From NCBI GenBank assembly GCA_963799105.1, contig CAWCVR010000001.1, positions 1,032 to 65,031 on the forward strand: a stretch of 64,000 nt of DNA, in the 5' to 3' direction. Below are positions 1,134 through 60,033 of this stretch, piece by piece. This DNA comes from Bryobacterales bacterium. GTDB taxonomy: Bacteria; Acidobacteriota; Terriglobia; Bryobacterales; Bryobacteraceae. A program made the position numbers and the translations under genes. Every line of letters begins with the position of its first letter. Positions within the stretch are counted from its first letter, which is position 1. The notes under the pieces were generated by a model. That model saw only the letters and a list, made by a program, of their open reading frames with translations. It did not search any database and was not told the DNA's origin.

Positions 1134-2244
1134 ATGGAACCAACCACCGCAAAGGTGACGGCGGCTGTTGAAGTAATCCGGAAGCGAATTCAGCAGGTCC
1201 GCGAACGGAAGGAACTCATCGGCGAGCAGAACACCAAGGCGGCGCTGATTGATCCGCTGCTGTCGGCCATGGGGTGGGAACTCCAGGAGATTGATGAGGT
1301 TCGCCGGGAGTACCGGCGCAAGCCGCAGGACAACCCCGTGGACTATGCGCTCTTCCTGAACCGCACGGAGTGCCTGCTGATTGAGGCGAAGTCGCTGGAG
1401 AAGGACCTCGGCGACAGGAAGTGGATTTCGCAGAACATCAGCTACGCGGCCGTGGTCGGGGTCAAGTGGTGCGTGCTCACAAATGGGGACGAGTATCGGA
1501 TCTACAACTCGCACGCCGAGGTCGACGTCGATGAAAAGCTGTTCCGCAAAGTGCGCATTTCGGACAGCGAGCCGAAGTTCATCATCGACACCCTCGTGTT
1601 GCTGTCGAAGGAGAAGATGCGCGGGAGCCTGCTCGATGAGATGTGGAAGGCCCACTTCATCGACCGCAGAGTCAGGCTCGCGCTCGAGAGCTTGCTCGGT
1701 GAAGACGACGCGCCATTGATTCGGGCCATCTGCAAGAAGGCGAATGGCGTCACGCCGTCAGAAGCACGCGCTTCTCTCAAGCGCGGCAAAGATTACCATC
1801 GATTTCCCGTTGCCGAAGGTTCTCGAACAGCCGGTGGCGCCCGCCGCGCCGCCTGTCACAGCCGAAGGCAGAAGCCTCCACCGCTCGCCGGGAAGCTGGC
1901 AAGAAGGCGTGGGAGACCATGACCGCCATGGCCGAGGCGACTCTGCCCAACCTCATCGCAGCCGGATTTGTAAAGGCGCCACTGGAGCTGGAGCGTACGT
2001 ACAAGGGTGTTCAGCTTAACCGCATCAATTCAGCCGGACGGAACGGTCTCGTTCGGCGGCGAGACCTGCCTGACCCTGTCGGCCGCCGGCGGCATCGCCC
2101 GGAAGTCGGTACTCGGCACATCCACACACGAACCGCCGCCAGCAACTAACGGCTGGACCTTCTGGCAGTTTCGGGAACCCGAAGACAGGCAACCTCCGGG
2201 ACATGGACAGCCTGCGGCAGGAGTTTCTGGCGGAGAAGAAGTAA
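1134..2244 (+). pseudogene. HsdR_N/Mrr-like PD-(D/E)xK domain protein with a RAMA-like C-terminal domain, broken by four +1 frame shifts
   Basis: ATG 1134 lies 8 nt after GGAGG (1121-1125). The N-terminal ~215 aa are intact ('VDYALFLN..CLLIEAKS', 'WCVLTNGDEYRIY'). The coherent peptide then hops frame at ~1785, ~1880, ~2010 and ~2187. The segments read ..AKITIDFPLPKV.. / ..AGKKAWETMTAMAEATLPNLIAAGFVKAPLELERTYKGVQL / TASIQPDGTVSFGGETCLTLSAAGGIARKSVLG..NGWTFWQFREPED / GNLRDMDSLRQEFLAEKK*. The stop is at 2242-2244. Confidence 0.6.
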
Positions 2245-2289
2245 TGCCAGCGGGCACGAATGGCGGCTAACGCTGGTCCGGAGCGCAAA

Positions 2290-2361
2290 ATGAGGATCAA
2301 GAAGAGCACCCGACACGCCAAGATTACCGGCGATTTCGGCGAGATGGCGGTCCTCTATTGG
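2290..2361 (+). pseudogene. 5' fragment (24 codons) of a PD-(D/E)xK-type gene interrupted by a transposon
   Basis: From ATG 2290 the frame reads MRIKKSTRHAKITGDFGEMAVLYW and ends exactly at the transposon end. It continues in frame at 5603 (LSKYGFECALVDHTGIDIIA..). Confidence 0.7.
2357..2361. repeat. Target-site duplication ATTGG (left copy)
   Basis: ATTGG lies immediately before the TGTAAC.. transposon end. An identical ATTGG lies immediately after the ..GTTACA end at 5598-5602. Confidence 0.7.
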
Positions 2362-2587
2362 TGTAACCGGCCACGCTTATTGCCCGCGTAGCGGGCAGTT
2401 TTTCTCACACTGACGCCGGTCTTCCCCGGCGGCATCGCGACCGCTTGACGGCGGCCAGCCTGCACAAACCACCAATCCAGCGCTAGGATGTCGAAGTGTG
2501 TGCGGGAGAGTTCCAAAAGCCTCACAGCCCGGACCCTCCCGCCAGAGCAACCCCGGGAGTTAGCGCTCCCTGAAGGCCGATCCTACA

Positions 2588-8517: not shown

Positions 8518-8538
8518 TCGATTTGTCCTTTCGGGGGA

Positions 8539-10914
8539 TTACGGGTTCGAGTAGAGGAGGATGTAGCCCGCCGTGGCTCCGGCAGGCGTTCTTCACTTTG
8601 AGCACGCCAGACCATCCGGACGGGTTGGTGGCGCCCATCAGTTCGGCGAGGCGGTAGCCATTGCCGGTGCCGCCCGCGAGGATCAACTCGCCGCCGGCGG
8701 TGACCTCCACCAGCCTGTGGTCCGCGAGGTTCGAGCCGGGACCGTAGATCCGAAGTGGCGACTCCGCGTTGTCCTTGGCAGCGATCACGGTCGCGCCGCA
8801 CGCGATTCCTGCCGCAACGGCGGCGGTCTGCGACGCCCACGTACGGGCGTAGCCAGCCTTCGGATCGTTGCCCTGCTGCAGGCATGCGCCCCACAGGTAG
8901 ATGGCGCCGCTGGTCCAGTTGTCGCCGTTCCCGGCGAACTGGCGCACGACGATCCAGAGTCCGGTCTGCCCGCCCGCCAGCGTGCCGGTGATCTTGAACC
9001 GCTGCCACGCCGTCGTGAGCGTGATGCTCGTCGGGCCCGCGAGGTATCCGGCATAGGCGTTGTCCACGATGGCGATGGACACCTGCTTCGTTCCGGACGC
9101 GACCTTGGCCCAGACGTAGAACGTGTACTGGCCTCCGGACGCCAAGCCCGCGATCTGCTGCTGGACGATAGGCGTCGCGGTTACCGCCGTGATGGTGTCC
9201 GCGGTCGCGTTGCCATCCGGTGCGGCGGTGCTGTTCGCGGTGGCCGAGCAGGAACCGCCGTTCTTGTCCCAGGTCGCGACGGTGAAGTCCTCGGAGTACT
9301 TCGCCATGTTCTCGAAGGGACCGCCCACCGTTTGGAACGCGCCGCACTCGAACGATTGGAAGTGGGAGTCCAGGTAAGCCCACTGATTGTTGGCGGCGAC
9401 ATAGCCGAATGACGCGCCGCCGGAGCCATCGCGCAGCACCAGGGTGCTGGCCGTCGCGCTGGCTGTGCCCGAGGTGCGCGCGTTATCGAGAGTGCCACTG
9501 ACGATGTCCGTTGCGGCGTGGGTGTGGGCCGTGTCCGCCTTGGCTGTGCTGCTGCCGTTCACCAAGACGCAGTCCGTGACAGTTCCGGCTGCGCCGTCCA
9601 GTTGGCCGGAGGAGTTGATTACCGCCGCCTTGGAGACGGCCCACGCGGTGCCCTTCACGGGGCGGTTCGTCAGATCGGTCGCCAAACTGGTCACGTCCGA
9701 TTCGGCGTGCGTGTGCGCCGGGAGATCGCCAGCCAGAAGGCTATCCCACGCCGGCGCAGCGGACACCGTCCCGGTCCCGGTCTGCCGCAGGAACTTCCGG
9801 CTCGCGGTGGTGTTCCCCGCCAGGCGCGCCCAGGCGGGCGTCCCGTTCGCCGCGATGAGGTCACCCAGGACCGGCGCGGCAGCCACGGTGTCCGGATGCG
9901 TCGCGGAGAGCAGGTTGTGCGTGGTGGCGCCGCTTGCAGCCGCCACCGTAACGTTCACGCGGTCGTTGCCTGCATCGTCCGCGACCGTCAACGTCACGTT
10001 CGCCCCTTCGATCAGGTTCAACGCCCGGCGCGTCCCAACCGCTGTGCCCGCCTTCTGGATCGTGAACGGCAGCGCTCCGGAAACGATGTCGGTGGCCACA
10101 TGGGTGTGGGCGGGGAGGTCGCCAGAAACCAACGCCGCGCCGCCTGTGACGCGCCCCTTGGCGTCCACGGTGACCTTCGGGTACGTCCCTGCCACCACGC
10201 CCGTCGCCGCCAACGAGGCCACCCCTGCCGCCACAGCAAGCCCGCCGACCGGGTCCACCTGGACGATGCCCTTGCTGGTGGTCGTGGCGTCCGGGTAGGA
10301 GAACGCGCCGAAGGTCTGGCCCGCCGCGAAGTCGATAATGGCGTCCATCGCCAGGTGGTTGCTGGCGTTCAAAGCCATCGCCGAGGTCGCCCGAGTTGTC
10401 AGCCTTGCGCCACTTGACCGCGCCGAGGTTGGGCAGGCGTACCAGGCCCGTGGCGGCTTTGTTCCCCGACCCGAATTCCGCGCCGTCCTGGAACGTCTTC
10501 AGGCCGGTGATGGTGACCGCGCCGTTCTTCTGGACGTAGTTGCGCGCCGCCGCCGTGCCGAGCTCGTTCTCGATGGCCAGCACCGCCGACTGGAGCGCGG
10601 TGATGAAGCCGGAGACCATGTTGGCCTTCACCGGGACGCCGCTGGCGTGCGTGGCGGCGGTCGTACCGAATGCCCCGCGCTGGCAGCCGGTGAACTGCGT
10701 GCCGGTCTTCGCAGTGTAAACGATCAACTCGTCGTCGATGGAGAGGATGCCGTAGCGTGGCGGCGAATCCGCCCGCCGTGGACTGCACGGAGATTGTGGA
10801 GTCGCCGGCGCCGATGGCCGCCGTGGCTGTGGTTTCGAGCGGCTTGGTCGAGAACGCATCGACCGGCGAGTACAGCGTGGACGGCCCGTCAATCGCAGTC
10901 GGAAAGTCAGTCAT
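8539..10914 (-). pseudogene. Phage tail fibre / receptor-binding protein with three +1 frame breaks
   Basis: The ATG at 10914 overlaps the upstream stop (ATGA). The coherent peptide is spread over 3 frames. It reads MTDFPTAIDGPSTLYSPVDAF..STAGGFAA / RYGILSIDDELIVYTAKTG..KADNSGDL / AMALNASNHLAMDAI..(repeated 'GDLPAHTH' motifs)..GVLKVKNA / AGATAGYILLYSNP* (stop 8541-8539). Breaks are at ~10760, ~10385 and ~8584. Confidence 0.7.
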
Positions 10915-13900
10915 TGCATTTTGCCTTGTTCGCTTCGAAGCGATTGAGTGCGCCGCCAGCCACCGCTCCCACTGGTACCGCGATGACAGATCTCGACCGC
11001 GCGCGCGGCCATGGGCTTGAAGTACTGCGCGCCGGTCACCTGCATCTGGCCGGCGATTTCGAGCGGGACCGGGCGGGAGTTCAGGCAGAACTGATCGAAG
11101 GCCCAGTAGCAGAACGAGTAGAGCTTCAGCGGGAGCCACATCCCGTACGCCTGCGCCATAGGCGGGTCCGGTGGGCCGTACAGACCCGCTCAGGAACATG
11201 CATTCCGACGCCGGCCTCCCGAGCGCGATGCTTGCGAACGTGATGGCCTGCTTCATCAGGCCGGAGTTCTTCTGCCACACGTCATAGTCGAATCCCTCGC
11301 ACCGGAAATACTTGATCCCGTACGAGGAGTTCTTCCATTGGTTCGGCAGGTTCACAGAGAAGTTGAGCGCCCGGAACTTCGTGCTCGGCTTGGGCGCGCC
11401 CTGGTTCGCATCGAGAGGCCACAGGCACTCGAACACGGCGGTCGGATGATACCCGCGGACGTATGTGATCACGTCCTGGCAGTAGGCCCAAATGCGGTCG
11501 CGCAGGAAGTCGGCGGATCTCGTTCTGGTGCGCCGGGTCGCCAGCGGGATCATCGGTGTTTGCCCGGAATGGCCAGATCTGGTGGCCCTTGGCGGCGGCG
11601 AAGTCGCTGATGGTGTCCTGGTCGTAGTAGGGCATCCCGCCGTTCGCGTCCTGTGCCTGATTGTCGAAGTACCACCACTGCGTCTCCCCGAACTGAAGCA
11701 CCACCGGCAGGCCCGCCGCCTCGATCTGGTCGGCGCACTCTTTGTACATCTGGCGCAGGTACGTCCGGACGCGGGTGCCAAAGTGCATCTGGTGCGAGGG
11801 GACGCCCAGGTCCACGTCCGCGCCTGGCGACACGACGCCGCCCGAGTAGGAGAGGTACTTGGCGCGCATCGCGGCAGGAGGGAGGTAGCACTCCATCGAG
11901 AAAGCGAACGACGCCATGATGCCCGCCGCCTGGAACTGGCCGGCGAGATCGCGAATCCACTTTCGCGCGCCCTCGGTCATGACGGGCGAGACGGCGTCGA
12001 TCATGTCCCAATCGCCGTCGGCGCCAGCCGTGCCAAGGTGGTCCGTGAGCGTGAGCGTCACGGAGTTCGGCGTGCCTACCGCGACGCCGGTGTACGTCCA
12101 CGAAGGCGCCTTCGATTGGATGCGGAGCGTGGTGCTCGATCCGAAGTTATCGTCGGCCCACACGCCTGAGAACATCCCGTTGATGATCGCGCGCATGTCG
12201 GAGACGATCCCCTGCAGCGTCTCGCCGTACCCGATGGCGTGGTTGATCGTGGTCCCACCAATCGAGAACGAGACCACGTCGCCCGCGACGGGCGTGCCGG
12301 AGAAATCCACCGTGGCGTATGGATAGGTGGCGTTGATGCGCCGCCGCTTGTTGTTCCAGAAGACGCCCATGTACACATCGGCGTGGCCCTTGAAGCCGAG
12401 CTTCTGGAGTTGCCAGAGGTGCCATGCCGGAGGCTTCTTGTAGCCGTGGTCGGTGTCAAAATCCATGGCGAGGGACACGTCGGTATAGATCTGCGGGGCG
12501 TCCGGAACGTCCTGTGGCTCCAACGGCCAGAGGTAATCGAAGTAGAAGTAGTACCCGCTGCTGGCGGCGTTCTTGCTGAACAGGGCGGTGATCTCGACGG
12601 TGTGGTTGCCCGCCGCCACGCCGCCCCGCACTTTCAGATTCGCCGTTGTGCCGCCGTACTCGTTCAAATACAGATCGTGGGTGGTCGCCACGCCATCGAC
12701 GGACACGCTGACCTTGCCGCAATCGGTGTTGAGAAAGGTCCCAAGGTAAAGATCGTGCTGGCGCGGGTACGAGTAGCGGAGCGTGACCTTGCGAACGTCG
12801 AGCGAGTTCGAGGCCGCGGTGCGCTTCGCGTGTCCCTTGCTCCACCACTGCGACGGCCACCCCACCGCGCCGTACTTGTAGTCCTCCCAGAAGCCGGTGT
12901 ATTTGCATCGCGCGTCCCCTTCCTCGATCCGGTCCGACCCGCCGCCCACCTTCAGGCTGCCGTCACCGCTCACCGCGATATTGGAGATCGTGCATCCCCA
13001 CTCGACGTTGCCGGCGAAGCCGGAGACAGGAGAGAGCTTCTTCAGGCGCACGCCAGCCGACCACGTGCCGGGCGTAGAGGCTTCGAAACCGCGCGCCACG
13101 GTGATCTGGGTTCCCGAGACGACGGACAGCAGTTGGATGCGCTCCTCGCTGGTCGGCGTGCCAATGAAGTACCGGCCACCGGTCAACTTCGTCGCGTCGT
13201 CCACCGTCCACGTCGCATCGGAGGAGCCCACGCCCGCCGTGAGGAAGCAGCCGTCCTGGAGGTCCTGCTCGACGTTCTCGAATCGCGGCGCGAAGACCAT
13301 GTACATCTTGCGGCAGTCGCTCATCGGAACGGACCGCGCCATTCTTGTCCAGCAAGGTCTGCGTGAAGTCGAGCGTAACGTGGTACTTCGTGTTGTTGTC
13401 ACCGTTCGCGAACATGAAACTCGAACCGCTGCCCGCCGTCCACTGGAATCCCTGCCCGCTGCTGACCGGGACGCCGGCCAGCGTGCGGCCATGAGCGACG
13501 AAGACGCGATCCAGATTCCCGAGTTTCCCGTACCGCGCTGTCGGCCCGGTGCCCAGCACGAAGGTAAGAGTAATGCCGCCGGTGCTCGGGCCACTGGCCC
13601 AAGCCTGCGCGTGAATCACGCCGCTCTGGTCCGGACCAAATCTGCCGGCAACGGAAGCGCCCACCGTGTTGATGATGTCCGCGAGCTTCTTGGCGACATG
13701 CCATGCCTTCGTCTTCCGTGTCACGAAGGAGCCACTCGGATGGCCCATCGATACGCTCGCGTGGAGCGCGCCCGCGCCCACTCCTATTACGGTGGTCTGT
13801 TCCTCGTTGCGGCCGGTGCGCTCGATCCAGATGCCATCGCCTGTGTCGAACCCCGCAGAACTCTGCACCGGCAGGGTGATATCACCAGCGTTCACATTGG

Positions 13901-14436
13901 CTCTCAGTTGGGTTTCGACCCGGCAGTCCGAACTGGTCACCGTGTACCGGGTATCGCGGAAGTAGAGGTGGAGCCAGTCGATTCCGCCATCCATGTTCTC
14001 TTCGCCGTTGATATCGACGAGGACGGTGGCAGCGGTCTCGCTGCCAGAGAAAGCGGTCGCGTGGTCGAGCAGACGCACTTCGTGGGTGTCGCCGGCGCCG
14101 GTAACGAACGTCATGGCGTCCCAGGAGACGGACGGATACTTCGCCGCATCGAACCGCATCGCGCCGTCGAGAGCCTGATCGTATTCGATATCGAATTCCA
14201 GTTTCAGGCCGGAGAGATCGGTCTTCGGCAAGTGCTTCAGGCGCAGGTGGTTGAAGTAATCGTAAGCGTTCCACCAGCCCAGCACCGCGAAGTCCTCCGC
14301 AGCCTGGAAGATGCCGGAGATCGAGACACCGGTCTGCGGTGGCATCGTGGAGAGTGGTCGTCGCGCCGCGGCCAGTGAATCCCTGCAACTGGAAGTTGCG
14401 GCGGGGGTCGAAAATCTGGAGTGGTTCAGTCGACAT
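10911..14436 (-). pseudogene. Large (~1,175-codon) phage tail/host-interaction structural protein with four +1 frame breaks. The C-terminal half may be glycan-hydrolase-like (uncertain).
   Basis: ATG is at 14436 (MSTEPLQIFDPRRNFQLQGF..). A continuous sensible peptide is obtained only by joining four more track ORF frames (12963-14444, 11282-13594, 10399-11781, 10911-11159). Joins fall at ~14350, ~13330, ~11515 and ~11190. It ends with a TGA that overlaps the tail-fibre ATG. Confidence 0.6.
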
Positions 14437-14517
14437 GGAGCCAATCGCTACGTCAGGACCTGGTGCAGAGGGAGAAACCCAACGTCTGCGCATTCTGATA
14501 CCATCGGCGAAGATCCA

Positions 14518-16114: not shown

Positions 16115-18813
16115 TTACGTCTGGATCACCACCGTCAGATCGGAGCCAGGATCGGGCGTGGCAACCGCCTTGATATCGAACGCCAAGTCGTTTCCTTCGA
16201 TCAGCACGGCGGTGGGCCAGATCGAAGGCCGGATGGTCGATCCCGCCGGATGGTTTTGGGCCACGATGGCGGTGAAGGTCTGGTTCGCCGCATCCACCGA
16301 GATCACGTTCACATGCTCCTCGTTGGCCTGGCCGAACTCCAGGAACACGAAGTCGCCGGGTGCCAGGCCACTGGTCGATCCGTCATAGGATGCCGTCGCC
16401 ACCGCTTGCGCAACGCCGCTGCCGGTGATCGGGGCGGTGGTGATCAGCCCGTAGTCGTCATATGGCAGGCGGCGCGTCTCCGGCTTACCGTAGCCTTGGG
16501 AGACGAGGAAGTCCCAAGTGTTCTTGAACGGCGTCCCGAGGTTCTGCGCGATGCCCATCTTCTCCAGCACGTTCCACGTCGCGCCGCCGTCGGTCGAGTA
16601 CTTCACGACGAAGGCCGACTGGCCATCGCTGGTCCCTTGCTGGAGGTACGCATAGACGCACCGGATCGAAGCGGCGTTCTGAACCTTCATCGGGATCGCG
16701 ACGTTGTCCTGGACCGCGAGCGCGCCGGGAATTTGGAATGTGTAAGCGCCGCCGGAGCAGGTGCGGTCGCCCGGCATGAAAGGCTCGTTGTGGTGCGAGA
16801 GCGGAAACGTCGTGAACGGCCCATACCCGAAGTGGTTCGCCACACCCACAACCGCCGCGACCACGCACGCCGAGGGAAGCGTCGCCTCGATGCGCGGCGG
16901 GCAATCCGGGGGTCCGGAAGAAGCCCTTTTTCACGGAGTATGTGAAGATCTTATAGTCGAGCCTGAAGAATCGGATGCCCTTCGCGTGCGGGCACCGTAG
17001 CGTCTCGAACGACGCCCAATCTTCCGGCTCTCCGGCCCAGTATCTCTGGAACTGGAAATTCCCGGTCGGGACCACATCGCCGGTATTACCGGGACCGACA
17101 ATCTGGGCGCACTCGTATGATCGCCGGTAACCGACGTTCGGGTCGCGCGATTCGTCGTTGAAGATCACGAAGTCGCCCACCTGGAATGACCGGGAGGTGC
17201 TGGGGTTCACGGTGCATGTCACCGTCACCGGATCGGTGTCTTTGTCGATGGCGGAGTCGAGGCTGGCCCACAGGTCGGTCGCAAGCTCGTCGATGTAGTA
17301 CAGAGACATCGCAACCTCGTTCGCGCCCACGATATTCGCGTTGCCGGAGGCGTCCGGAAGCACCTCCATCTGATCGAGGGCGAAAGTGCCGTAGTCGGAG
17401 AGCTTCGGCGTCCCAGTCTACGATGCCGGGAACTCCGTTGTCTTGCAGGTTCTCGTCCGGCACCGGCGCGGCGGCAACGTCGGCGGGCTTCGGGCCGGCG
17501 ACCAGATCGTACATGGAGTCCGTGGTCGTGCGGCCCTGGATGTCGATGGAGTAATCCTTGTTGAGCTTCCAAGACGAGACGCGAAACTCGCCCGAGCCGC
17601 CCGGCATATCCGGATGCGTCATCGAGCAGACCATCCCCGGCTCGGTGTTGAGCGCCAGGACCGTGGTGCGGAAGACCAACTGGCGCGCTGCCTTCCACTC
17701 CGCGATGCTGGTGCCGCCCAACTCCTCGCGCAGCCGGATGCTGATAATCCGCGCCGCCTGCGACTTCGTGCAGGTGCCGGATAAATTGACGTTGGATTTC
17801 AGGAACAGCGGACCCGCTGCACCGCCCAGTAGCGTGGCGCGGTCGATATCGTAAACCGTGACTGAGTTGTTGACGAACTTGTAATCCTGGTCCGCGAAGT
17901 TGGCGGTGAGGTGGTCGAACGAGGGCTTCAGCGGAGCCAGTTGGAGGGAATTGAAGACGATGTTCCCGACGGTAAAGGCCTCCACGGTCGAGGAGTTCTC
18001 CCGCACGCCGATCTTGAGCTTGCCGAACGAGAACGTGTAGTAGCCCAGGCAGTTCATCAGCACTTCCTGGAGCCAGTCACGGAGGGGCTTCGCCGCTTCG
18101 CCGAACTTCACCAGCCAATCGGAGTTGTCCTTCAGGAAGCCCACAAGATCGCGCAGATGGCCGACCCACGACCGCAGATACCCCTGGAACTGCTCGCCCA
18201 CCGCCTCCTTCAGTTCATTCACTTCGCGGGCGAGTGCGGCGGACTGCTCCTCCGCGCTGCCAGTCGCAGCGGCGTGGGCACCTTGAATCTTGGCGGCCTC
18301 GCGCATGACCGCGTTGTACCGGAGTTGCAGAACCTCATTCTCGCCGAGGGTCACTTCCTGCCTGCCAAACGGCATGTCGAGCAACCGCGCGAATCCGCGC
18401 CGGTACTCGAACACGTCCTTGGCTGAGGGCATCTTCAGCAGGTGGACGGTCGTCGCGCCCAGGACCCGGAGAGTGACCTTGAAGGAGTCGCCGTCCGGAA
18501 CTACATCGTCCACTTCCGCCAGGCTCAACTGCTCGACGACCTTCATAGCCTCGAAGGCATCGATCTCCGGGGCGTCGCCGTCGGTGGGCTTCGCTTGGAT
18601 GAGGGCTACCAGCGCGGCATCCACATCCTCTCCATTGGCCACGGTGGTCTCGGAGATGCCGCGCCCCAACTGCTTCACCAGCACCTTGCGGCGTCGCTGG
18701 CGTCCGATCCATTCGTCATCGGAGGGGAAGCGGACGCGCACGGCTTTCACGCCGCCCGGCGTCCGCAGGTTGATCGTAATCGGCCTGCTTGCGTCAAATA
18801 CTGGGGTTTCCAT
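16115..18813 (-). pseudogene. Composite tail gene: tail-assembly-chaperone-like N-terminus joined to a lambda-J/Phage-tail_3-like tip protein, with two +1 frame breaks
   Basis: The peptide METPVFDASRPITINLRTPGG.. (~150 aa) runs directly into ..AEEQSAALAREVNELK.. and ..LTANFADQDYKFVNNSVTVYD..PGMVCSMTHPDMPGG... Frame joins are at ~17410 (..GIVDWD / TPKLSDYGTFALDQMEVLPD..) and at ~16910 in a GGGGG run (..KKGFFRTP / DCPPRIEATLPSACVVAAVV..). The stop is at 16115. Confidence 0.55.
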
Positions 18814-22040: not shown

Positions 22041-24141
22041 CTACGCTGCCACCGTGTTCTTGCAGAGGCCACGGTAGTCAATCGCGCCCGCCGCGAAGTC
22101 CAACCGCGCCTTGATTTCCACGCCGTCCACCTCGAAGCCCTGGCGGGTCTCGATGTAAACGCCCTGCTGCCCTTCGAGGTAGCAGTACTCGATGGTGTCG
22201 ATCTGCGAGGGATCGACCGCCATAAACCAGTTCGTCACGCCGAGCGAGGCGACCGCATCGAGGCGGCCTTCGACGATCTTCACTAGGGACTGCACCCAGG
22301 GCGGAACGACGCCCGTCACAGCGGTCGAGGCCAGGTTGATCGGGATAGATCAACTGGTCGGCGGTCTGTTCGAGCGCGGCGGGGACGATCAGGTACCGGG
22401 GCTGCAGATTCAGGACCGTGCCCTTGGGCGCCTTCTGCACGCGCAGTGCGGCGCGGGCTGTGGCCAGTGCGCCGAGCGCGAGCGCGTTGCTGCCGTTCAG
22501 GTTCTTGTGGTTCGCGTGGAACAGCGGGTTGCCGTCTGCCATGTTCGGGTTGCCGGTGATGACTGCCCAGACGGTGTCGCTTTCGAGTTGGGCAGCCGCC
22601 TGGCCGAGGCCGGCAGGAACGCGGGTCAGCGCCTGCAGGTCGTCGTTGACGATAACCTTGCGCGTGATGGCCACGATCTCGCCGAAGGTAGCCAGCGAGT
22701 AGGTCTCCTTCGAATCCGATAGCGCCGTGCGATGGAACTCGCCTTTTTCGTTTACCTTGGGCAACGTCGGAACGTCGCTCAACTGCACGCGGTTGATGGG
22801 CTTGAAGTCCGCGGCCGACACCTGGCGGCAGAACGGTACGAAGGTGCGCGGCGCGGCCTCATAAGCCTGGCGCAGCGTCTTGTTAGCGACGTTCGCCAGG
22901 ATATTGGGGAAGTCGCTGGTGGTCGCCATCCCGCCCTCAAAATACTCTTCGGCGCCATGCCGGCCTTGCAGAGCCACTCGCGCGATTTCGTTGCGGCTCA
23001 TCCCCCGCGTTTTCACGCCGACGGCCTCCAGGCACTCGCGTGCGATATCCACGAGCGTCAGGCCGGCGTACTCCCGACCTGCGTCGCGCAGCTTCGAGTC
23101 GCCGGGATTGCCACGGAACAGAATGCCGGCCTCCATTCCCTCCCGCCGCTTGTCTCTCGCGTCCGCACCCATCGTCACGGTCGGGTTGACCGGGTCGGTA
23201 TGGTGCTCGCCCCACTGAGCGGCAAGCTTCGTCATGATGCGCTCGCGCGCGATCTCAACGGACAAGCCCTCGTCGATGATCGCGTTGACGAACTTCTCCT
23301 CCAGTTTGAAGGGGTTGGCCATCGTGCGAATCGTGGTCGCACGAAGGCGTTCCGTCTTCACTGCCTCGTCGCGCGCCGCGGCGAGTACTACTTCGTTCTG
23401 ACGGGCCTCTTCGCCCGCAACCTGCGTGCTTGGTTCCACTGGGGTCTCCTTATGGGCAGATGCCCGTTGCGTTTCAACTACAGTCGATTGCGCCGGTGGC
23501 TGCGTTCCTGCCGCCGACATGAAAGTCGTGTTTGCGTCGCCGGGAATCGGTGTGAGAGATATCTCAAACGGCTCCCAATCGACTGCCGTGAATTCCTTGC
23601 GCGCCTGGTTCTTGGGGGTAGTATCGACCTTTTTGTAGATCCACATCCCTGGGCTCAGGTTTTGAATGATGCCGGCGCGAACGTCGTTCCAGATGGGCGT
23701 CACGGAGTCGCGCTTACTGAACTGAATGGTTGCCTTGCCGGTTGCGCCCACGGCCCACGCGCGCCTGATGACTCCCATCTGGCTCTCGACGCCACACGCC
23801 ACGTGGGAGTCCAGCACGGGCCCGCCATTGTTGAGGCGATCCAGGCGGCAGCCTTTCATCGAGAGGATGAGATCGTACTCCTCTCCACTGCGCCAGTCGA
23901 ACCGGGGAACCTTCGCGCCGGTGTACCAGACGGCGTCGATCATCCGGTTGTCGTCATCTGCGGATGAGGGCGCGAATGCCACCGCCACGGCGAAATGTTC
24001 CACCTCCACCCCCGGATCGACGGGGGTGCTGCCCACGGCACTCAAGCCTGCTGCGACAGCATCCGGCCCGGTGCTGGCGCTAGCGGCGATCACCTCGGCA
24101 GGCGCCTCGGCCTCCTGGCGTTCAGCAATTTCGTCTGGCAT
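22041..24141 (-). pseudogene. Prohead protease / major capsid protein fusion with one +1 frame break
   Basis: The N-terminal protease-like region contains 'GGPVLDSHV'. The capsid part reads ..TSDFPNILANVANKTLRQAYE..NPLFHANHKNL... The frame join is at ~22340 (..TADQLIYP / INLASTAVTGVVPPWVQSL..AGAIDYRGLCKNTVAA*). Confidence 0.7.
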
Positions 24142-32833: not shown

Positions 32834-32851
32834 GGTAGCCGTCGCACAACC

Positions 32852-35138: not shown

Positions 35139-35345
35139 TCAGTATTCGGCTCGCATTTCTGCCTCCAGAATCCTCAACTCGGCCGACCAGTCTGCCAGCG
35201 CCATGCATAGGCCCTCGACGTCAGGGTGCCCGGCGAGGAGCAACAACTCCGCGGCTGCAATCTCGTCGCGGCACCGGTCCACCTCACGCTGCCACTGCGC
35301 TTCGCTCTGCGGCGACCACGCTGTGGCTTCTCCCGTCGGAGTCAA
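35139..35345 (-). CDS. Small hypothetical protein (at most 68 aa; start uncertain)
   Basis: The track ORF has a TTG start. Its 5' end overlaps the corrected-frame C-terminus of the methyltransferase, so the true start may be the internal GTG (VDRCRDEIAAAELLLLAGHPD..). Confidence 0.3.
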   Translation of the reverse strand: MTPTGEATAWSPQSEAQWQREVDRCRDEIAAAELLLLAGHPDVEGLCMALADWSAELRILEAEMRAEY

Positions 35346-36544
35346 GCTTCGCCTCTTGACCGGTGAATTCCTGCCAACGCCGAATAATCACGTCGCAGTA
35401 CTTCGGCTCCAATTCGATCAGCCGCGCCTGGCGCCCGGCCTTCTCGCACGCGATCAACGTCGTGCCAGACCCGCCAAACGGATCGAGTACCGTATCGCGC
35501 GCCCTTGCTACTGTTGCGCACGGCGCGCTCGACCAGCTCGACCGGCTTCATCGTCGGGTGCAGATCGTTGACGTGGGGCTTCTTGATGAACCACACGTCG
35601 CCCTGGTCGCGGGCGCCGCACCAAAAGTGATCCGCGCCTTCCTTCCACCCGTAGAGGATCGGCTCGTACTGCCGTTGATAGTCCGACCGCCCCATCGTGA
35701 ACGTGTTCTTCGCCCAGACGACGAACGTGGACCAGTGGCCGCCCGCATCGCGGAACACCCTCTGGAGGGTGTGGATCTCCGAGGACGACATGCAGATGTA
35801 AAGCGCGCCCTTGCAGACCGCCAGCATGTTCACGCTGGCGTCGCGCAGGAACCGCTCGAAGTCGGCCCCCAAGTTATCGTTTGCGATTGGCCGGTGCGTG
35901 CCGCGGAGCGTGTCCTTCATGGTCGCCCCGTAGTTCACGTTGTACGGTGGATCGCAGAAGACCATGTCGGCCAGGCCGCCGGCCAGCACCTTCTCCACGG
36001 CTTCCATCTGCGTGGCATCGCCGCACAGCAGCCGGTGCTCCCCGAGAGTCCAGACATCGCCGGGAAGGGTGACGGCGGTCTCCGGCGTCTCCGGAACGGC
36101 GTCCTCGTCGGTCAGGCCCTCGTTTGTCCCCTCCGGGTCCGCCAGGATGATCTCCAATTCCTCTGCGGAGAACCCGATCAGGTCGAGGTTGAATCCGTTG
36201 ACCTCCAGATCCTGCAACTCGACCCGCAGCATCTCCTCGTCCCATCCCGCGTTGAGCGCGAGTTTGTTGTCGGCCAGGACCAGCGCGCGCCGTTGCGCTT
36301 CGGTCAGGTGGCCGAGGACGATCACCGGGACCTCGGCCATCTTCAACTTGCGGGCGGCCAGCAGGCGGGCATGACCCGCGATGATAACGCCGTTCGCGCC
36401 GACCAGAATCGGAGACGTCCACCCAAACTCCACGATGCTGGCAGCGACCTGGGCGATCTGCTCGTCGGAATGCGTCCGCGAATTGCGGGCGTACGGGATC
36501 AGCCGGTCGATCAGCCACTGCTCGATATGGAGATCGGTCTTCAA
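35284..36544 (-). pseudogene. ParB-like nuclease domain + DNA methyltransferase (beta-class N6A/N4C), with one +1 frame break
   Basis: TTG start at 36544. The ParB-N region has 'IPYARNSRTHSDEQIAQVAASIVEFGW'. Motif IV is 'FCDPPYN'. At ~35497 the frame breaks. Motif I 'DTVLDPFGGSGTTLIACEKAGRQARLIELEPKYCDVIIRRWQEFTG' appears only in the next frame, which stops at 35286-35284. Confidence 0.75.
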
Positions 36545-36700
36545 GATGCCTTCCTTCGAGGGCCATAGTGAGGGTTAGGCCCGTTGTGCTTGATCGCACC
36601 GGAGTCCTGCGCCTTCGGGTTCAACACCTGCTCCGATCCACGATGCACGCAGCCGCGACGGACGCGAACGTCTGTCCGGTGGCTTCGAGCGTCGGTTCAG
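36541..36700 (-). pseudogene. C-terminal relic of a third ParB-methyltransferase paralogue
   Basis: The translation ..PTLEATGQTFASVAAA.. / ..EQVLNPKAQDSGAIKHNGPNPHYGPRRKAS* parallels the C-terminus of the 37378-39021 protein (..PVLEATGQALAEVAAA..LNPRAVDSRAIKHHGVNPYYGPRKK..). The 24-residue block shares 17/24 residues. No N-terminal part is present. Its TGA overlaps the TTG start of the next gene. Confidence 0.5.
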
Positions 36701-39021: not shown

Positions 39022-39230
39022 CTACTGTGAGGCCCTTCGGCCAACCGTGGCGCGGCCAGGGTGACCGACCTGCCCTGACCGCCTAGATAAGTGCAACTAA
39101 CTATGAGACTTTGTGGGCCCATGCCACCCGCCGGCCGAAAGTGGAAGGCCAGGTCCCAGGATTTGCCCCGCGCTGCGTCTAACGCGGTAGACTACTGCCA
39201 CCCTTTTGCGCACGGGTGCGCGAAGTTGCG

Positions 39231-40155: not shown

Positions 40156-40198
40156 GATTCACGCTTGCGTTTAGTGTAACATAACCGCGGCCGCCCCT

Positions 40199-40582: not shown

Positions 40583-40639
40583 TGCGGCCAGGTAGCCCGC
40601 AGTGGCCGCGCGGAGCTCGGCTACAAACTCGCCGGGCGC

Positions 40640-41008: not shown

Positions 41009-41015
41009 CGGCGCT

Positions 41016-41654: not shown

Positions 41655-41667
41655 TGACGATTCGCTC

Positions 41668-43536: not shown

Positions 43537-43619
43537 GGGCGAGGGTCGAAAAGCCGTTTCAGATACACAATGGGATATTTGTGATTTTAGCGCAAGTGGA
43601 CCGGTCCGTCCCGCCGCTC

Positions 43620-51996: not shown

Positions 51997-53024
51997 CTAC
52001 TGCTGCTGCGGCGGAGCTACGCAGATCGCCGCGCCATCGAACGACATCAAACCACCGATATTCACCGTAAGGTTCGTCGAGGTATACGCCGTTGCGCATC
52101 GCGCTATGGGCACGGGAGGCGCTGGTATCGTAGCGTTGATTTGATACAGACCAACGTAACCCGGAGCGAAATAAGCTGGCAAGACGGTTGCGTTGACATG
52201 CGGGTCCTCCGCCCTTGGCGACATCGCGGCCGCGGCCGGTATCGGCGGCGGATACGGCAGACTTGGCACGGCGTTTGGCCGGAATTCGAAATCCACATTC
52301 GCCAGGGCGTTTGCCGGAGGGACCGGGCTCGCTTGCCCGGTCTTCACCGAGCCGTTCGGCTGCCCAAGCCCCACGACGTATATGGAGATGGTCTCCCCGA
52401 TCTTCGCCGGATTCGTGCCGGTCACGTTGCTGCCGTCCGCGTGAATCACGGCTGGCGGCAGTTGCGACGGGGCCAACCCGGCTGCGGGCGGAGACCCCGG
52501 AGCAGTCAGCGTGTCGCCCATGCGCACCACATGGACGGCGTCCGTCTGCATGGTAGCTGAATTGAAGCCCGGTTCGACTGGTCGTCGGAAACCGTGAGCA
52601 CGGCGGAGTTCGAGCCAGGGCCGGCGAGAGAGAAGCCGGGCGGAACCAGTTCGAACGGGAGTTGCACGGTGACTCCTGTGAGGGCCGGGCACCCCGTCGA
52701 ACCTGATGGGGCGCCGCACGCAATCGGGGCCGGAAACACCGCAAGAATTGGAACTGCGAGCGGCCCCTGTGGGCTAAGATCCTGGGTTACAGACGCCGAT
52801 ATGTGGGCTAGCGTCGAGGGCAGTGGCAGGCTGTTTGCCCGCACCGGACCCGTTAACGCCGCCCCCACGCCGTGCACGAATACTGTAAGCAACTGGCCCG
52901 GCGCAGCCAGTACTGGCGAGGGTTGAGCGTATCCAGCGCCCGCGACCAAAGCATTCTGCGCCAAAGCGGGCGGGCCGGCTATGACTGCCAGTCCGATCAC
53001 GATTGCCAAGTTCCAGAATTGCAT
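51997..53024 (-). pseudogene. Secreted TIGR03437-like (Solibacter-type C-terminal domain) protein with one -1-type frame break
   Basis: The signal peptide is 'MQFWNLAIVIGLAVIAGPPALAQ'. The peptide has ..SLPLPSTLAHISASV.. and a frame join at ~52570 (..AVLTVSDDQS / EPGFNSATMQTDAVHVV..). It also has ..'APGYVGLYQINATIP', which is typical of TIGR03437 proteins. Confidence 0.6.
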
Positions 53025-55415: not shown

Positions 55416-56356
55416 GCGGCCTTCCTATCCTCGGCCTCGATGAGGGCGACGAACACGTCCTCCATCGAAGGCGCGATTTCCTCCAGGCGGGTCACGCGAA
55501 CCCCCTTGGCTTCGAGCGCGGCACGGAGCGCGCCGGCCCGCGCGGTGTTGTCCACTGTGACATGCAGGCCGCTGCCGAAGACCGCCACGTCGAACACGCC
55601 TACCGTGCCTTCGATGGCGCGCATGGCTTCCAGCGGGTCCGACGATTCGAGGCGCAGAAGCTGGTGCTCCGTCAACCCTTTCTTCAGCTCGGCGGGCGCG
55701 CCGAGAGCGATCACCTTGCCGCGGTACATGAGCGCCAGGCGATGGCAATACTCGGCCTCGTCCATGTAGTGCGTGCTGACAAAGATGGTGTGGCCGGTGC
55801 GCGAAAGGTCTTGGATCAGGGCCCAGAAGGACGCGCGCGCGATGGGGTCCACACCCGAGGTCGGCTCGTCCAGGAACAGGACGGGCGGGTCGTGGAGAAT
55901 GGCGCATCCCAGCGCCAGCCGCTGTTTCCAGCCGCCCGACAGGGTGCGCGTGAGGGCGGAGCGCCGCTCGGCGATGCCCGCCATTTCAAGCACGTAGTCC
56001 TTGCGCGCGGCCCGCTGCGCGCGCGGCACGCCGTAGATCCCGCTAAAGAAGTCGATGTTCTCTTCCACCGTGAGATCGTCGTAGAGCGAGAACTTCTGCG
56101 ACATGTAGCCGATGTTGCGGCGCACTTCCTCGGGCTGCGTGGCCACGTCCAGGCCGTGCACCGAGGCGCGGCCAGCGGTGGGCGTGAGCAGGCCGCACAG
56201 CATGCGAATGACGGTGGATTTCCCGGCGCCGTTCGGCCCCAGGAAGCCGAAGATCTCGCCCTTTGAGACGCGCAGCGACACGTGGTCCACGGCTACGAAT
56301 GCGCCGAAGGTTTTCACCAGCCCGTCGATTTCGACCGCATATTCCGGGGGCATCAT
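55412..56356 (-). CDS. ABC transporter ATP-binding protein
   Basis: 314 aa. Walker A is 'GPNGAGKST', the signature is 'LSGGWKQRL' and Walker B is 'LFLDEPTSG'. Confidence 0.9.
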   Translation of the reverse strand: MMPPEYAVEIDGLVKTFGAFVAVDHVSLRVSKGEIFGFLGPNGAGKSTVIRMLCGLLTPTAGRASVHGLDVATQPEEVRRNIGYMSQKFSLYDDLTVEENIDFFSGIYGVPRAQRAARKDYVLEMAGIAERRSALTRTLSGGWKQRLALGCAILHDPPVLFLDEPTSGVDPIARASFWALIQDLSRTGHTIFVSTHYMDEAEYCHRLALMYRGKVIALGAPAELKKGLTEHQLLRLESSDPLEAMRAIEGTVGVFDVAVFGSGLHVTVDNTARAGALRAALEAKGVRVTRLEEIAPSMEDVFVALIEAEDRKAA

Positions 56357-56366
56357 TCACCCTCCC

Positions 56367-56491
56367 TGTGGGGCGGACCCCCTGGTCCGCGGCCGGCCCC
56401 CTGGCCGGCCATTCGCCAATTGCGGGCGCTTGACTCCGCGGCGAAGAGCGGGACGAGGGCGTCCCGCGCGGACCAGGGGGTCCGCCCTACA
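56367..56491. repeat. Palindromic intergenic element (MITE/REP-like) with 25-bp terminal inverted repeats
   Basis: TGTGGGGCGGACCCCCTGGTCCGCG (56367-56391) pairs with CGCGGACCAGGGGGTCCGCCCTACA (56467-56491) at 24/25 positions. An internal hairpin is GCGGGAC-gagggc-GTCCCGC. Confidence 0.7.
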
Positions 56492-56714
56492 AATCCCGAG
56501 GAGATCCCGATGCAGGCAGAAGTCCGCGGCGCACGGCGGCGCAGCCGCAAACAAGCCAGGCTGCGGTGCTCCGGTTTCGGGGGCCGGTTAGTTTTGCGGG
56601 CAGGCGAGCTTCGCTCGCCGGGCGGGTTGACAACCCGCCGCAGGCTGCCAGCCTGCCCCACATAAGACCGTAGCGGCGCGCGAAGAATTTGACGGGTAGT
56701 AGTACATAAGATCC

Positions 56715-57512
56715 TCATGCGGCGGCCTCCGCTTCCCTGATCCGTTGGATGAACGCGGCTTCCAGCGTGGCCGATCCGCTCTCCCGCTTGATCGCCTCGG
56801 GAGGGGCGCAGCGAATCAGCTTCCCCCGGTGCATCAGGCCCACGCGGTTGCAGCGTTCCGCCTCGTCCAGGTAAGCCGTGGTCATGAAGATGGTGATGCC
56901 GTCCTTCAGAAGCTGGTAGAGGATGGCCCAGAACTGCCGCCGCGACACCGGGTCCACGCCGTTGGTCGGTTCGTCCAGAAACAGAATCCGCGGGCGGTGA
57001 AGCAGGGTACACATCAGCGCCAGCTTCTGTTTCATGCCGCCCGAAAGCCGGCCGGCCTGGCGCCCGCGGAACTCCTCCATGCGCGTCATCGCGAGCAGTT
57101 CCACGGTGAGACGCTGGCGTTCCGCGCCGGTGATGCCGAACAGGTCGGCGTAGAAATCCATGTTTTCCTGGACCGTCAGGTCGCCGTACAGGCCGAACCG
57201 CTGCGCCATGTAACCGATCTGATCCTTGACGGCCCGCGACTCGCGCGCCACGTCGTGCCCCGCCACCCGCGCCGAGCCTTCGCTCGGGTCCATCAGGCCG
57301 CACAGCATGCGCAGCGTGGTGGTCTTGCCCGCGCCGTCCGGCCCCACGAGGCCGAAGATCTCGCCGGTGGGGATGCTGAGGTTCAGGCGGTCGACGGCGG
57401 TGATGGCTCCGAAACGGCGCGTCAGGTCGTGCGTTTCGATGATGGGCCGCTCGGGCCGCTCGACCCAGAGGGTACCCCCGGTCGCGGTTCCGTGAGTGGG
57501 CGCTTCCGTCAT
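56715..57512 (-). CDS. ABC transporter ATP-binding protein
   Basis: 265 aa. Walker A is 'GPDGAGKTT', the signature is 'LSGGMKQKL' and Walker B is 'LFLDEPTNG'. Confidence 0.9.
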   Translation of the reverse strand: MTEAPTHGTATGGTLWVERPERPIIETHDLTRRFGAITAVDRLNLSIPTGEIFGLVGPDGAGKTTTLRMLCGLMDPSEGSARVAGHDVARESRAVKDQIGYMAQRFGLYGDLTVQENMDFYADLFGITGAERQRLTVELLAMTRMEEFRGRQAGRLSGGMKQKLALMCTLLHRPRILFLDEPTNGVDPVSRRQFWAILYQLLKDGITIFMTTAYLDEAERCNRVGLMHRGKLIRCAPPEAIKRESGSATLEAAFIQRIREAEAAA

Positions 57513-58678
57513 TCCAGCACGATCTCCGCGTCCGCCGGCATGTTGGCCTTCAGCTCGCCTTTCGGATTATCCAGGTCGATCTTGATGCGGTAGACCAGCT
57601 TCACGCGCTCCTGCTGGGTCTGGATCTGCTTGGGCGTGAACTCGGCTTCGTCGGCGATGAAGCCCACCCGTCCCCAATAGACTTTGTCCGGCGAATCGGT
57701 GGTTACGCGCGCTTTGGCGCCGATCTTGACCCTGGGTTTGTCGGTCTCGTTGATGTAGCCGCGCAGCCATGGGTGGGCCATGTCGCCCACCGTCAGCACG
57801 CTGGTTCCCGGCGCCAGAATTTCTCCCACCTCGGCGGCTTTCACCAGCACCACGCCGTCCAGCGGACACACCGCGATGGTGTCGGCCAGTTGGGTATCGA
57901 TCATTTCCAGGCTAGCCCGGGCGCGCTCCACTTCCGCTCGCCGCGTGGTGAGTTCCTGCTCGCGCCGCTTCATTTCGATGCTGTTGGCCTCGGCCATTTT
58001 GAGCGCGCCGCGAGCGTGTTCCAACTGTCCCTGCTGCGCCTGGATCACCTCGGCGCGCGGCCCCGCGTCCACCAGGGCCTGCTTCTCCCTGGCCGACCGC
58101 AGCGCGGCCGCGGCGCTTTCCCAGCGCATGCGGTATTGGTCGTATTGCGCCTTGGAAATGTCGTCGTCCCGGAAGAGCGGCTGCGCGCGGTCCCAGTCCG
58201 CCTTGGACCGCTGCGCCTCGCTGTCGGCCGCATCCACCGCGGCTTTGGCGTCCAGCTTCTCCTGCGGCCGCGAGCCGTTTTTCAATTCCGCCAGGCGGGC
58301 TTCGCTGGACGCCAGATCGGCGGTGCGCTGCTGGATATCCGCCGCCAGCGTGGCTTTTTCCCATGCCAGCGCGGATTCCGCCTGCGCCAGTTGGGACTGC
58401 GCCGATTCCAAACCGGCCTGCTGCATCTCCTTCTGCGCCAGGAGCTGATCTCGGTCGAGCCGCGCGATCACCATGCCCCGCTTCACCGCGTCGCCTTCGT
58501 CGGCATTCCGTTCGATCAGGCGGCCGGAAGTCTTGAAGGCGATGTTCACCTCCGTCAGCTCGATGTTTCCCGAGATCATGATCCGGTTGTCTGGCTGACG
58601 ATTCATGCCTCGAAACGCGTAGACTCCCGCGCCCGCCAGGGCCAATACGATGACGATGATGACGATTCGCTTTTTCAT
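57509..58678 (-). CDS. HlyD-family membrane fusion (periplasmic adaptor) protein
   Basis: The start is taken at MKKRIVIIVIVLALAGAG (ATG 58678). It has a long coiled-coil region and a C-terminal beta-barrel region 'VYRIKIDLDNP'. Confidence 0.85.
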   Translation of the reverse strand: MKKRIVIIVIVLALAGAGVYAFRGMNRQPDNRIMISGNIELTEVNIAFKTSGRLIERNADEGDAVKRGMVIARLDRDQLLAQKEMQQAGLESAQSQLAQAESALAWEKATLAADIQQRTADLASSEARLAELKNGSRPQEKLDAKAAVDAADSEAQRSKADWDRAQPLFRDDDISKAQYDQYRMRWESAAAALRSAREKQALVDAGPRAEVIQAQQGQLEHARGALKMAEANSIEMKRREQELTTRRAEVERARASLEMIDTQLADTIAVCPLDGVVLVKAAEVGEILAPGTSVLTVGDMAHPWLRGYINETDKPRVKIGAKARVTTDSPDKVYWGRVGFIADEAEFTPKQIQTQQERVKLVYRIKIDLDNPKGELKANMPADAEIVLE

Positions 58679-58679
58679 G

Positions 58680-60033
58680 CTATTGCACCGTGCTCCTGAC
58701 CTTGCCCATGGCCTGCGCCAGGTCGATGCGCGCCACATTGAACAGGTATAAGGCCGCGGTCCGATTGTCGCGCGCCCGTTCCAGCCGCGTCTGCGCGTCG
58801 GTCACTTCGATACTGTTAGTCACGCCCGCCTCGTACCGGCGGCGCGCCTGGGCCAACTCGTTCCCCGCTAGGTCGAGGCCCTCCTTGGCCACCCCCACCT
58901 GGTCGCCGGCCGATTTCAGGGCGTCCAACGCCAGCCGCACGTCCAGCGAGATCTGCGCCTTCAAATCGTTGGTGCGAACCTGCTCGGCGCGGTACTGCGA
59001 GAAGGATTCCTCGCGCCGCGAGTCGAACGCGTCCGCCGTCGAAAATCGGCACGCGAACCGAAATGCCATACGTGCGCGTGGGCAAGGCGTTTTCGAGGCC
59101 AGACCCGCTGGAACCATAGTCTCCGAACGCCGCCACGGTTGGCAGCCGTTCCATCTTCGTGGCGCTGGCCGAATAGCGCGCCGTCCGCTCGCGCTCCTGC
59201 TGGGCCTCGAAATCCGGCCGGCTTTTCAACGCCTCTGCCTGGGCCTGATCCACGGTGACGGCGTCCGCCGGCGTGTAGGCCAGTTTGTCGGTCAACTGCA
59301 CTTCCAGGTCGAGCCGCATGTTCATGGCCCGCAGCAGGCGCAGGTAGGCGGCGCGGCGTGCGTTTCCGGCTTCCAACTGGTGCTGACGGTCGTTGGCCAG
59401 TTGCACCTTGGCGCGGGTGATCTCGATGCCCGTGCCGGTGCCGGCGGCCTTCTGGTTTTCGGCCAGTTGCAACACCGCCTCCGAGAGCGTCACATTGGCC
59501 TCGGCGGCTTCCACGTCGGCGTCGGCCTTGACCGCGGCCAGGTAGGCGCGCGCCACCATGCCGGCCACTTGCTCGCCGGCGGTCTCCGCGTCGCCGCGCG
59601 TCGCCGCCACCCCGGTCTTCGCGGCCTGGTAGCGGCGGATGGCGCTCAGGTCGAGCACGCTCTCCGAGCCCGACAGCCGGGCATCCATGACCGTGAACGG
59701 ACCCACAAACTGCGGGAAGTGGAAACCCGGAATGGGTATGTCGAGCTTGTTGAGCCCCTGCGCCGCCAGATCCGCCGTGCGGCTCTGGTAGGCGAGGGCG
59801 CCACTCACGTTGGGCAGCAGCGCCGAGCGCGCCTGGATGGACCGCTCCCGCGCCTGCCGCAAGGCCTCGCCCGCCAGCTTGATGCTGGCGTTTCCGTCGG
59901 GCGCGAGGGCCACCTCGACGGCGCGTTTCATGCTGAGCGGAACCGGCCCCGTCCCCGCCGCCTGGTCCGCCGCGGCGCTATCCGCCGCAGCCAGCGGCGC
60001 GACCGTCAAGAGAATTGCCAACGCCAGTCTCAT
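58680..60033 (-). pseudogene. TolC-family outer membrane efflux protein with one +1 frame break
   Basis: The signal peptide is 'MRLALAILLTVAPLAAA'. The frame joins at ~59040 (..GISVRVPIFDGG / ..ADAFDSRREESFSQYRAEQVRTNDLKAQI..). It ends ..AQAMGKVRSTVQ*. Confidence 0.75.

Follow-up and report, generated by a model that had tools for sequence, protein, structure and literature searches.

The window analysed here, the whole stretch of 64,000 nucleotides from the assembly of a Bryobacterales bacterium, contains a 40-kb island of prophage and defence genes whose reading frames are repeatedly interrupted, and this raises the question of whether the interruptions reflect genuine decay of the genes or errors in the deposited sequence. 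The initial annotation had listed 17 reading-frame breaks. All of these were found in the deposited sequence, at most approximately 20 nt from the coordinates given there, and the signs were as described: 16 of the 17 were +1, and the only –1 break lay in the TIGR03437-like gene. We refined the break sites by nucleotide or protein alignment against intact relatives (73–99.5% nucleotide identity); this comparison with related genomes, which the annotation had proposed, revealed one surplus base in the window at every +1 break. The numbers of breaks assigned to individual genes agreed for every listed break, except that the tail gene contained five rather than four, the break at 10992 having been overlooked. 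With this site added, 17 of 18 breaks were +1 (P = 1.4e-4 against a 50:50 expectation). The sequence comparisons described below suggest that the frame breaks are very probably single-base insertion artefacts of the assembly consensus, which are patchy and occur genome-wide; between the two options considered by the annotation, systematic insertion-type consensus error and decay, they favour the former.

We compared the broken prophage genes with their closest intact counterparts. The tail fibre gene (8539..10914, minus strand; 790 codons when read through) contained three +1 breaks at approximately 10755, 10380 and 8590, as determined by blastn against the related sequences L001 and L002. Its counterpart in L001 is a single open frame of 813 codons, to which the read-through fibre protein was 92% identical from end to end with zero gaps and zero stops. 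The tail gene of 1174 codons (10907..14436, minus strand), whose product belongs to the PF23845 TIM-barrel family, contained its five +1 breaks at approximately 14336, 13331, 11517, 11184 and 10992 in the same blastn comparisons. The read-through tail protein was 91.5% identical to the unbroken ORF of L001 and had more than 100 intact full-length homologues, although a search of public protein sets for an identical intact tail protein found none, the top match being only 90% identical. When both proteins (1174 and 790 aa) were read through against L001, stop codons were absent and the alignment had no more than one gap, and the two genes contained no frame-changing indels other than the breaks. 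Two further +1 breaks, at approximately 17415 and 16895, were located in the J-like tail gene (16118..18813, minus strand) by blastn against L001 (90% nucleotide identity). The latter break had been placed inside a GGGGG run; however, the closest relative has a run of equal length, and the surplus base lies approximately 15 nt away. The protease-capsid fusion gene (22048..24141, minus strand) contained one +1 break at approximately 22345, and this extra base was single and uncompensated in the blastn comparison with L056 (provirus record G001; 86% nucleotide identity). The tail, fibre and J-like genes thus match intact relatives from end to end, which supports the earlier idea that little of the prophage might be damaged; the prophage is probably complete.

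Similar results were obtained for genes outside the phage structural modules. The HsdR_N/RAMA gene, which is type IV restriction-like (1134..2241, plus strand), contained four +1 breaks at approximately 1791, 1860, 2018 and 2176; tblastn and blastn against an ENA contig (L101, 91.7% nucleotide identity) revealed four 1-nt extras in the window, and more than 100 intact homologues of approximately 368 aa were found, the best being 92% identical. In the ParB-like methyltransferase 1 gene (35287..36574, minus strand), there was one +1 break at approximately 35501–35508, where an intact 450-aa ORF of a relative (L087) is spread over two frames of the window with a +1 offset. The TolC/OEP outer-membrane efflux gene (58681..60033, minus strand) contained one +1 break, caused by an additional A at 59027 that is absent from the same-genus genome G004. 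An exact-protein look-up for three neighbouring genes found no match. In all likelihood, the organism carries intact forms of the prophage, defence gene, methyltransferase and TolC.

Near-identical contigs from other assemblies were compared with the window at four sites (59027, 52555, 50280 and 14334), and the surplus base was absent at three of them: 59027 (L115, 99.5% identity), 50280 (L113, 99.8%) and 14334 (Logan contig L119). L115, an independent MEGAHIT-style ENA contig, encodes an intact OEP protein of 450 aa. Public samples with near-identical DNA are ENA ERZ27248448, JGI 3300036931 and 3300048769, and run ERR11571142. Assemblies made independently from the same or closely matching DNA accordingly lack the extra base; as these contigs are 99.5–99.8% rather than 100% identical to the window, a real strain-specific insertion is improbable, though conceivable, at any single site. 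In addition, blastn gaps against L001, L056, L101 and L113 revealed at least five further extra bases in non-coding DNA or at the extreme end of a coding sequence (1111, 8518, 8537, 24146 and 50280), two of which lie in the intergenic spacer between the fibre gene and the next gene (8518..8537, no strand assigned). Therefore, the insertions are not limited to coding DNA.

We further analyzed the whole genome with an HMM on codon usage, and found 276 '+1' and 70 '–1' frame switches, distributed over nearly all contigs. This raw ratio is biased, because the frame that follows a –1 switch meets stop codons sooner in a G+C-rich genome; after correction for sensitivity (detection of 0.87 versus 0.59), the numbers were approximately 320 and 110, and this estimate was then superseded by an alignment-based count. 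In an unbiased 211-kb alignment with G004, 13 coding 1-nt extras and four opposite-sign events were observed, and only one of the latter four alters the frame of this genome. Among 40 HMM candidates picked at random, a single Pfam domain spanned the junction in at least 24, including the domains of peptide deformylase, Met-tRNA formyltransferase, citrate synthase, ALAD, SMC, PDH E1, Mfd, FlhA and FliF. The lesion was thus found genome-wide and in genes of any function, with essential or housekeeping genes such as def, fmt, gltA, hemB, smc, aceE and mfd among those broken. Comparison with G004 also revealed dense patches in core regions: 15 extras at 423.5–431.8 kb of contig C2, eight of them inside 450 nt, and six extras inside 1.6 kb of the def-fmt region, with no uncompensated coding deletions in either patch.

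The breaks had been described as concentrated in the mobile 40 kb. Locally this is the case: no other 20-kb bin of the genome is as dense as the one that opens the contig, with seven HMM-detected breaks, and the local density of breaks is approximately 7-fold above the genome mean (P ~ 1e-9). Genome-wide, however, two core bins contain six breaks each and half of the bins contain at least one, and the equally dense patches in core regions contradict the idea that the breaks are a property of mobile DNA. That the affected DNA is poorly covered or strain-variable, as the annotation supposed, is a conjecture. An effect of contig ends, where coverage could be low, was rejected for lack of significance, and G+C content as a driver was likewise discarded, the rise being slight (0.667 versus 0.649).

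The inserted bases themselves were examined at the 39 mapped sites. At 24 of these, the extra base was unlike both neighbours, and only three lay in runs of three or more; the bases inserted were A (13), G (11), C (10) and T (5), in a genome of 65% G+C. No homopolymer enrichment was observed at the junctions, and on these results, together with the misplaced GGGGG example, homopolymer errors were rejected as the explanation. The pattern is unlike that of slippage mutation. The annotation's argument from the one-way bias to a technical cause is supported by these observations: the insertions occur genome-wide and are mostly non-templated, apart from the breaks the affected genes are intact and under purifying selection, and near-identical assemblies lack the base at three sites.

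We propose that spurious single-base insertions very probably entered the consensus of this assembly (29 contigs, 6.59 Mb) of a Bryobacteraceae-like acidobacterium. Their baseline in coding DNA is approximately six per 100 kb (~1 per 15 kb), but they are patchy, with a density climbing to one per 50–700 nt in patches that include the RAMA gene and the tail module. Because the inserted bases are largely non-templated, their source might be incompletely polished single-molecule reads of a noisy kind, or else a consensus of mixed strains; we infer both the platform and the reason for the patchy distribution from this pattern. Gene-fragmenting indel errors are known from long-read bacterial and metagenome assemblies (PMC12007338 Kastor, PMC9262707, PMC8442456). 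As in the present genome, single-base indels there split intact genes across a contiguous assembly and come to light when relatives are compared, and polishing removes them. However, nanopore errors as published are mainly deletions linked to homopolymers (PMC12007338), whereas the events described here are nearly all insertions, mostly unlike either neighbour, and strongly patchy; this difference weakens any assignment to a sequencing technology.

If the breaks are consensus artefacts, approximately 5–7% of the genes of this genome would be wrongly annotated as pseudogenes or as split ORFs, which calls for caution in all inference from it, and no biological reading of the apparent decay of the prophage, defence island, methyltransferase or TolC would be warranted. 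The insertion-only, non-homopolymer and patchy signature would represent a recognisable class of artefact, the signs of which can be seen without reads: every break is +1, the frame upstream stays open, the surplus base differs from the bases beside it, and the damage extends to essential genes.

Whether a few real lesions are superimposed on genome-wide technical insertions is, in our judgement, evenly balanced, and the clearest candidate is the missing base at 52555, the only break of opposite sign. It lies in the gene for a TIGR03437-like secreted protein (52003..53024, minus strand), which is a single ORF in relatives but falls into two overlapping matches in the genome to which the window belongs. 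The sister strain represented by L115 has the base that is missing here, yet contains a premature TAG 20 nt upstream, so that the gene has been inactivated separately in a 99.5%-identical strain; this stop codon would predict that the gene is dispensable. The TIGR03437-like gene may therefore be a genuine pseudogene, and it is the sole break that we grade in this way. One missing base may equally be a consensus error; the alignment with G004 revealed no more than one event of this kind in 211 kb, which fits either origin.

It is quite improbable that the island as a whole is a cryptic prophage with defence genes that are gathering real inactivating mutations. The locus does resemble cryptic prophages and defence pseudogenes in that several structural genes of the phage, together with a restriction-like gene, are interrupted within an island adjoining a tRNA gene, and the local excess of breaks and the stop codon in L115 would agree with decay. 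Real decay also happens in the RAMA gene family: two relatives from other metagenomes (P0180 and P0182) have C-termini that are genuinely out of frame. However, a decaying prophage is expected to show a mixed spectrum of deletions, nonsense codons, larger indels and truncations, and what was found is 17 single-base insertions; across approximately 12 kb of phage genes, all lesions were 1-nt insertions, with no deletions, nonsense codons or larger indels. Unlike in cryptic prophages, there were also no rearrangements, and purifying selection acts on genes that have kept their full length. Against L001, dN/dS was 0.114 in the tail gene and 0.124 in the fibre gene (~0.12), giving no sign of relaxed selection in these two genes, although on such a long branch a very recent inactivation would stay hidden. 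Moreover, lesions of the same type and density strike chromosomal genes such as def, fmt, a trmFO-like gene and fliF, essential ones among them, and the mostly non-templated nature of the inserted bases also argues against decay.

The strong one-directional bias, and the fact that the affected genes all read cleanly when one base is skipped, would fit surplus bases that are real and that the cell overcomes through +1 ribosomal frameshifting, quadruplet decoding or deletion editing of the RNA, a reading that we regard as extremely improbable. As in programmed frameshifting of the prfB type and in quadruplet decoding, the frame moves by one base per site; in contrast to these systems, a single gene can contain as many as five breaks, and the breaks extend to hundreds of unrelated genes. 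Neither a conserved shift motif nor conservation of the breaks was found: the 39 mapped sites shared no sequence context, and the frames of orthologues are uninterrupted, the base being simply absent in relatives and near-identical strains. Surplus bases in intergenic DNA also speak against recoding. ARAGORN reported one tRNA-like match with a 4-base anticodon (ccgg, C10:323554); however, its cloverleaf is poor, with a weak D-arm and a non-canonical T-loop, CCGG is not common to the break sites, and the match is likely a false positive. Several over-long ARAGORN 'tRNAs' also had poor structures and are likely false positives. Finally, it is hardly conceivable that the surplus bases are physically in the DNA, whether through an unknown patchy, non-templated insertion process or with +1 correction at the RNA or translational level, and such bases would touch hundreds of genes, essential ones included, in a free-living acidobacterium.

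We analyzed the reading-frame breaks of the window (C1:1032-65031 of a 6.59-Mb, 29-contig genome with 65% G+C, placed in or near Bryobacteraceae, phylum Acidobacteriota, by the names on homologues) on comparative and statistical evidence, using fetched relatives that carry uninterrupted versions of the broken genes. Three-frame translations reproduced the frame-hopping pattern in the HsdR_N/RAMA and tail genes, and a codon-usage Viterbi decoder trained on the window's own genome changed frame at the places given in the initial annotation. All 17 breaks listed there were present with their signs in three-frame translation, decoding and alignment to intact relatives, although the list had overlooked one at 10992, as well as several surplus bases lying outside genes or at gene ends. 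In the alignment to related genomes that had been proposed, the relatives' genes were intact and at the +1 breaks the window carried surplus bases.

Searching for exact matches to the proteins of intact neighbouring genes retrieved public contigs from other assemblies. Among these, L115, a MEGAHIT-style ENA contig spanning 12.8 kb with 99.5% identity, has no extra A at position 59027 in TolC (a base that is also surplus against the same-genus genome G004), and its OEP/TolC product is intact at 450 aa. A JGI contig (L113, 99.8% identity) lacks the surplus T at 50280, the extra tail-gene base at 14334 is absent from a Logan contig (L119) with an identical REC-TIR protein, and no indels were found in other same-strain JGI pieces (99.8–100% identical). 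In the RAMA gene, for which more than 100 intact relatives of ~368 aa each were found, bases 1791, 1860, 2018 and 2176 are surplus relative to a 91.7%-identical ENA contig; in the ParB-methyltransferase, a methyltransferase ORF of 450 aa from a different provirus matches two frames of the window that differ by +1, with the change near 35505. Two metagenome proteins (P0180 and P0182) share 96–97% identity with the N-terminal 226–243 residues of RAMA and continue into an off-frame reading of the C-terminal half; thus, frame-shifted copies of this defence gene occur in other public assemblies, and these could be real pseudogenes or errors of their own assemblies.

The TIGR03437-like gene is split by a break of opposite sign (–1) at 52555, where a base present in L115 is missing from the window. 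L115 itself carries a premature TAG in this gene (L115 10930-10940, window ~52575), 20 nt upstream of the missing base, which suggests a genuinely decaying gene, independently inactivated in two near-identical strains. Since the inactivating lesions in these close strains differ, the only –1 break may be a true lesion, or alternatively a consensus error of the deletion type.

Two IMG/VR contigs (L001 and L002) share 88% nucleotide identity over the prophage tail module, and the J-like gene, a 1195-codon tail open frame and an 813-codon fibre open frame are each unbroken in L001. In a blastn-type nucleotide alignment of the tail module with L001, every single-base gap was a surplus in the window and no single-base deficit was found. 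The surplus bases lie in the tail gene (PF23845; 14336, 13331, 11517, 11184, 10992), the tail fibre (10755, 10380, 8590), the spacer beyond it (8537, 8518) and the J-like gene (17415, 16895). The break previously assigned to a GGGGG run (~16910) proved misplaced, as this run is also present in L001, with the surplus base lying ~15 nt from it. Alignment to the provirus record behind L002 placed further surplus bases at 22345 in the capsid-protease gene and at 24146 (intergenic). When read through the breaks, the tail and fibre genes encode 1174 and 790 residues, respectively, with no stop codons, and match the L001 proteins end to end at 91.5% (one gap) and 92.0% identity (no gaps), with dN/dS of 0.114 and 0.124. 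Neutral decay is an unlikely cause, as 17 insertions without any deletion, nonsense codon or larger indel are unlike its product.

In a related prophage (L101 11313-13107; ENA ERZ25039473 contig_14137), the PF23845 tail gene is likewise annotated as a pair of overlapping ORFs (486 aa and 628 aa); the contig is named in the manner of a long-read assembler, suggesting the same kind of artefact elsewhere. Between the tail and J-like genes, window 14311-16105 is occupied by a histidine-kinase-like (HATPase_c) gene of low G+C (0.56) together with a REC-TIR gene. Both are missing from L001 and L002 at the corresponding position and look like cargo of the moron or defence type; run ERR11571142 has a Logan contig that encodes an identical TIR protein.

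Genome-wide, the decoder found 346 same-strand frame switches (276 of +1 and 70 of –1), counted when the upstream frame stayed open for >60 nt beyond the switch, at 3–9 per 100 kb in nearly all contigs. This count favours +1 (sensitivity 0.87 versus 0.59 for –1), because the frame after a –1 shift reaches stop codons sooner in a G+C-rich genome; after correction, the ratio was still ~3:1. For an unbiased count, 20 arbitrary 20-kb G004 stretches were aligned to the window's genome (211 kb aligned, 84% identity). Coding DNA showed 13 single-base surpluses in the window's genome (~6 insertions per 100 kb coding sequence) and four opposite-sign events, three of which leave its frame unchanged, whereas intergenic indels were symmetric. 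When the ORFs at 40 random +1 candidates were joined and scanned against Pfam, a single domain ran straight through the junction in at least 24, including peptide deformylase, methionyl-tRNA formyltransferase, citrate synthase, porphobilinogen synthase, SMC, pyruvate dehydrogenase E1, biotin carboxylase, Mfd, FlhA and FliF.

The 40-kb island contains at least 17 insertions against 2.5 expected at the genome coding rate (P about 1e-9), and the tail module alone at least 10 against 0.6. The concentration noted initially is thus real locally, but it is not a property of the mobile region. The densest 20-kb decoder bin is the first 20 kb of C1 (seven breaks), followed by C2:420-440 kb and C6:60-80 kb (six each), with no contig-end effect found on break density. 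Nucleotide alignment to G004 revealed 15 surplus bases in a core patch at C2:423.5-431.8 kb, eight of them within 450 nt, and six within 1.6 kb in the def-fmt core patch, with no uncompensated coding deletions in either. Such equally dense patches in core DNA argue that the enrichment stems from the quality of the consensus in these places rather than from mobility itself; a drop in depth over a strain-variable prophage is our guess at the cause.

Real +1 mutations usually come from replication slippage, which always copies an adjacent base. Of the 39 surplus bases that could be placed precisely, 24 differ from both neighbours, 12 lie in a run of two and three in longer runs; the A+T share of the inserted bases (A13, G11, C10, T5) is far above the 35% that the genome's composition predicts. 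Such non-templated, near-random insertions look like read noise surviving into the consensus. Noise in older single-molecule continuous long reads is dominated by insertions, and a mixed-strain consensus can keep both alleles as an insertion; either might be the source here. Published nanopore assembly errors are deletion-rich and homopolymer-linked (PMC12007338), whereas the insertions here showed no homopolymer enrichment at junctions and are therefore not a typical nanopore signature.

The genome-wide +1 excess, the broken def and fmt, the non-templated bases and the near-identical contigs without the base favour the first option of the initial annotation, and from these comparisons the breaks are very probably errors in the assembly consensus, of the insertion type and patchy in distribution. 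A free-living bacterium cannot bear multiple frameshifts in def, fmt and ~300 other genes, so the lesions would be technical. The breaks indicate no new biology; the gain is a recognizable artefact signature, and caution is due for all other findings drawn from this genome.

Outside the breaks, a related element in G004 (window 28500-43604 versus G004:C2:1005459-1017524), 73–80% identical to the ParB-methyltransferase and the genes around it, adjoins the orthologous tRNA-Ala flank, so elements appear to integrate recurrently at this site. At window 43.6 kb the synteny moves to a different region of G004, and no match to window 48.9-53.1 kb was found among the G004 stretches examined. ARAGORN called a tRNA with the four-base anticodon ccgg at C10:323554-323627 (weak cloverleaf, 3-bp D stem, non-canonical T loop); this call and about eight over-long 'tRNAs' (79–99 nt) are probably false positives. 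An intergenic repeat of ~130–370 nt (window 56355-56725), the most divergent stretch relative to L115, has many copies in the window's own genome (C1, C2, C3, C6, C10 and C13) and in related genomes (80–97% identity), and looks like a REP/MITE-like dispersed element.
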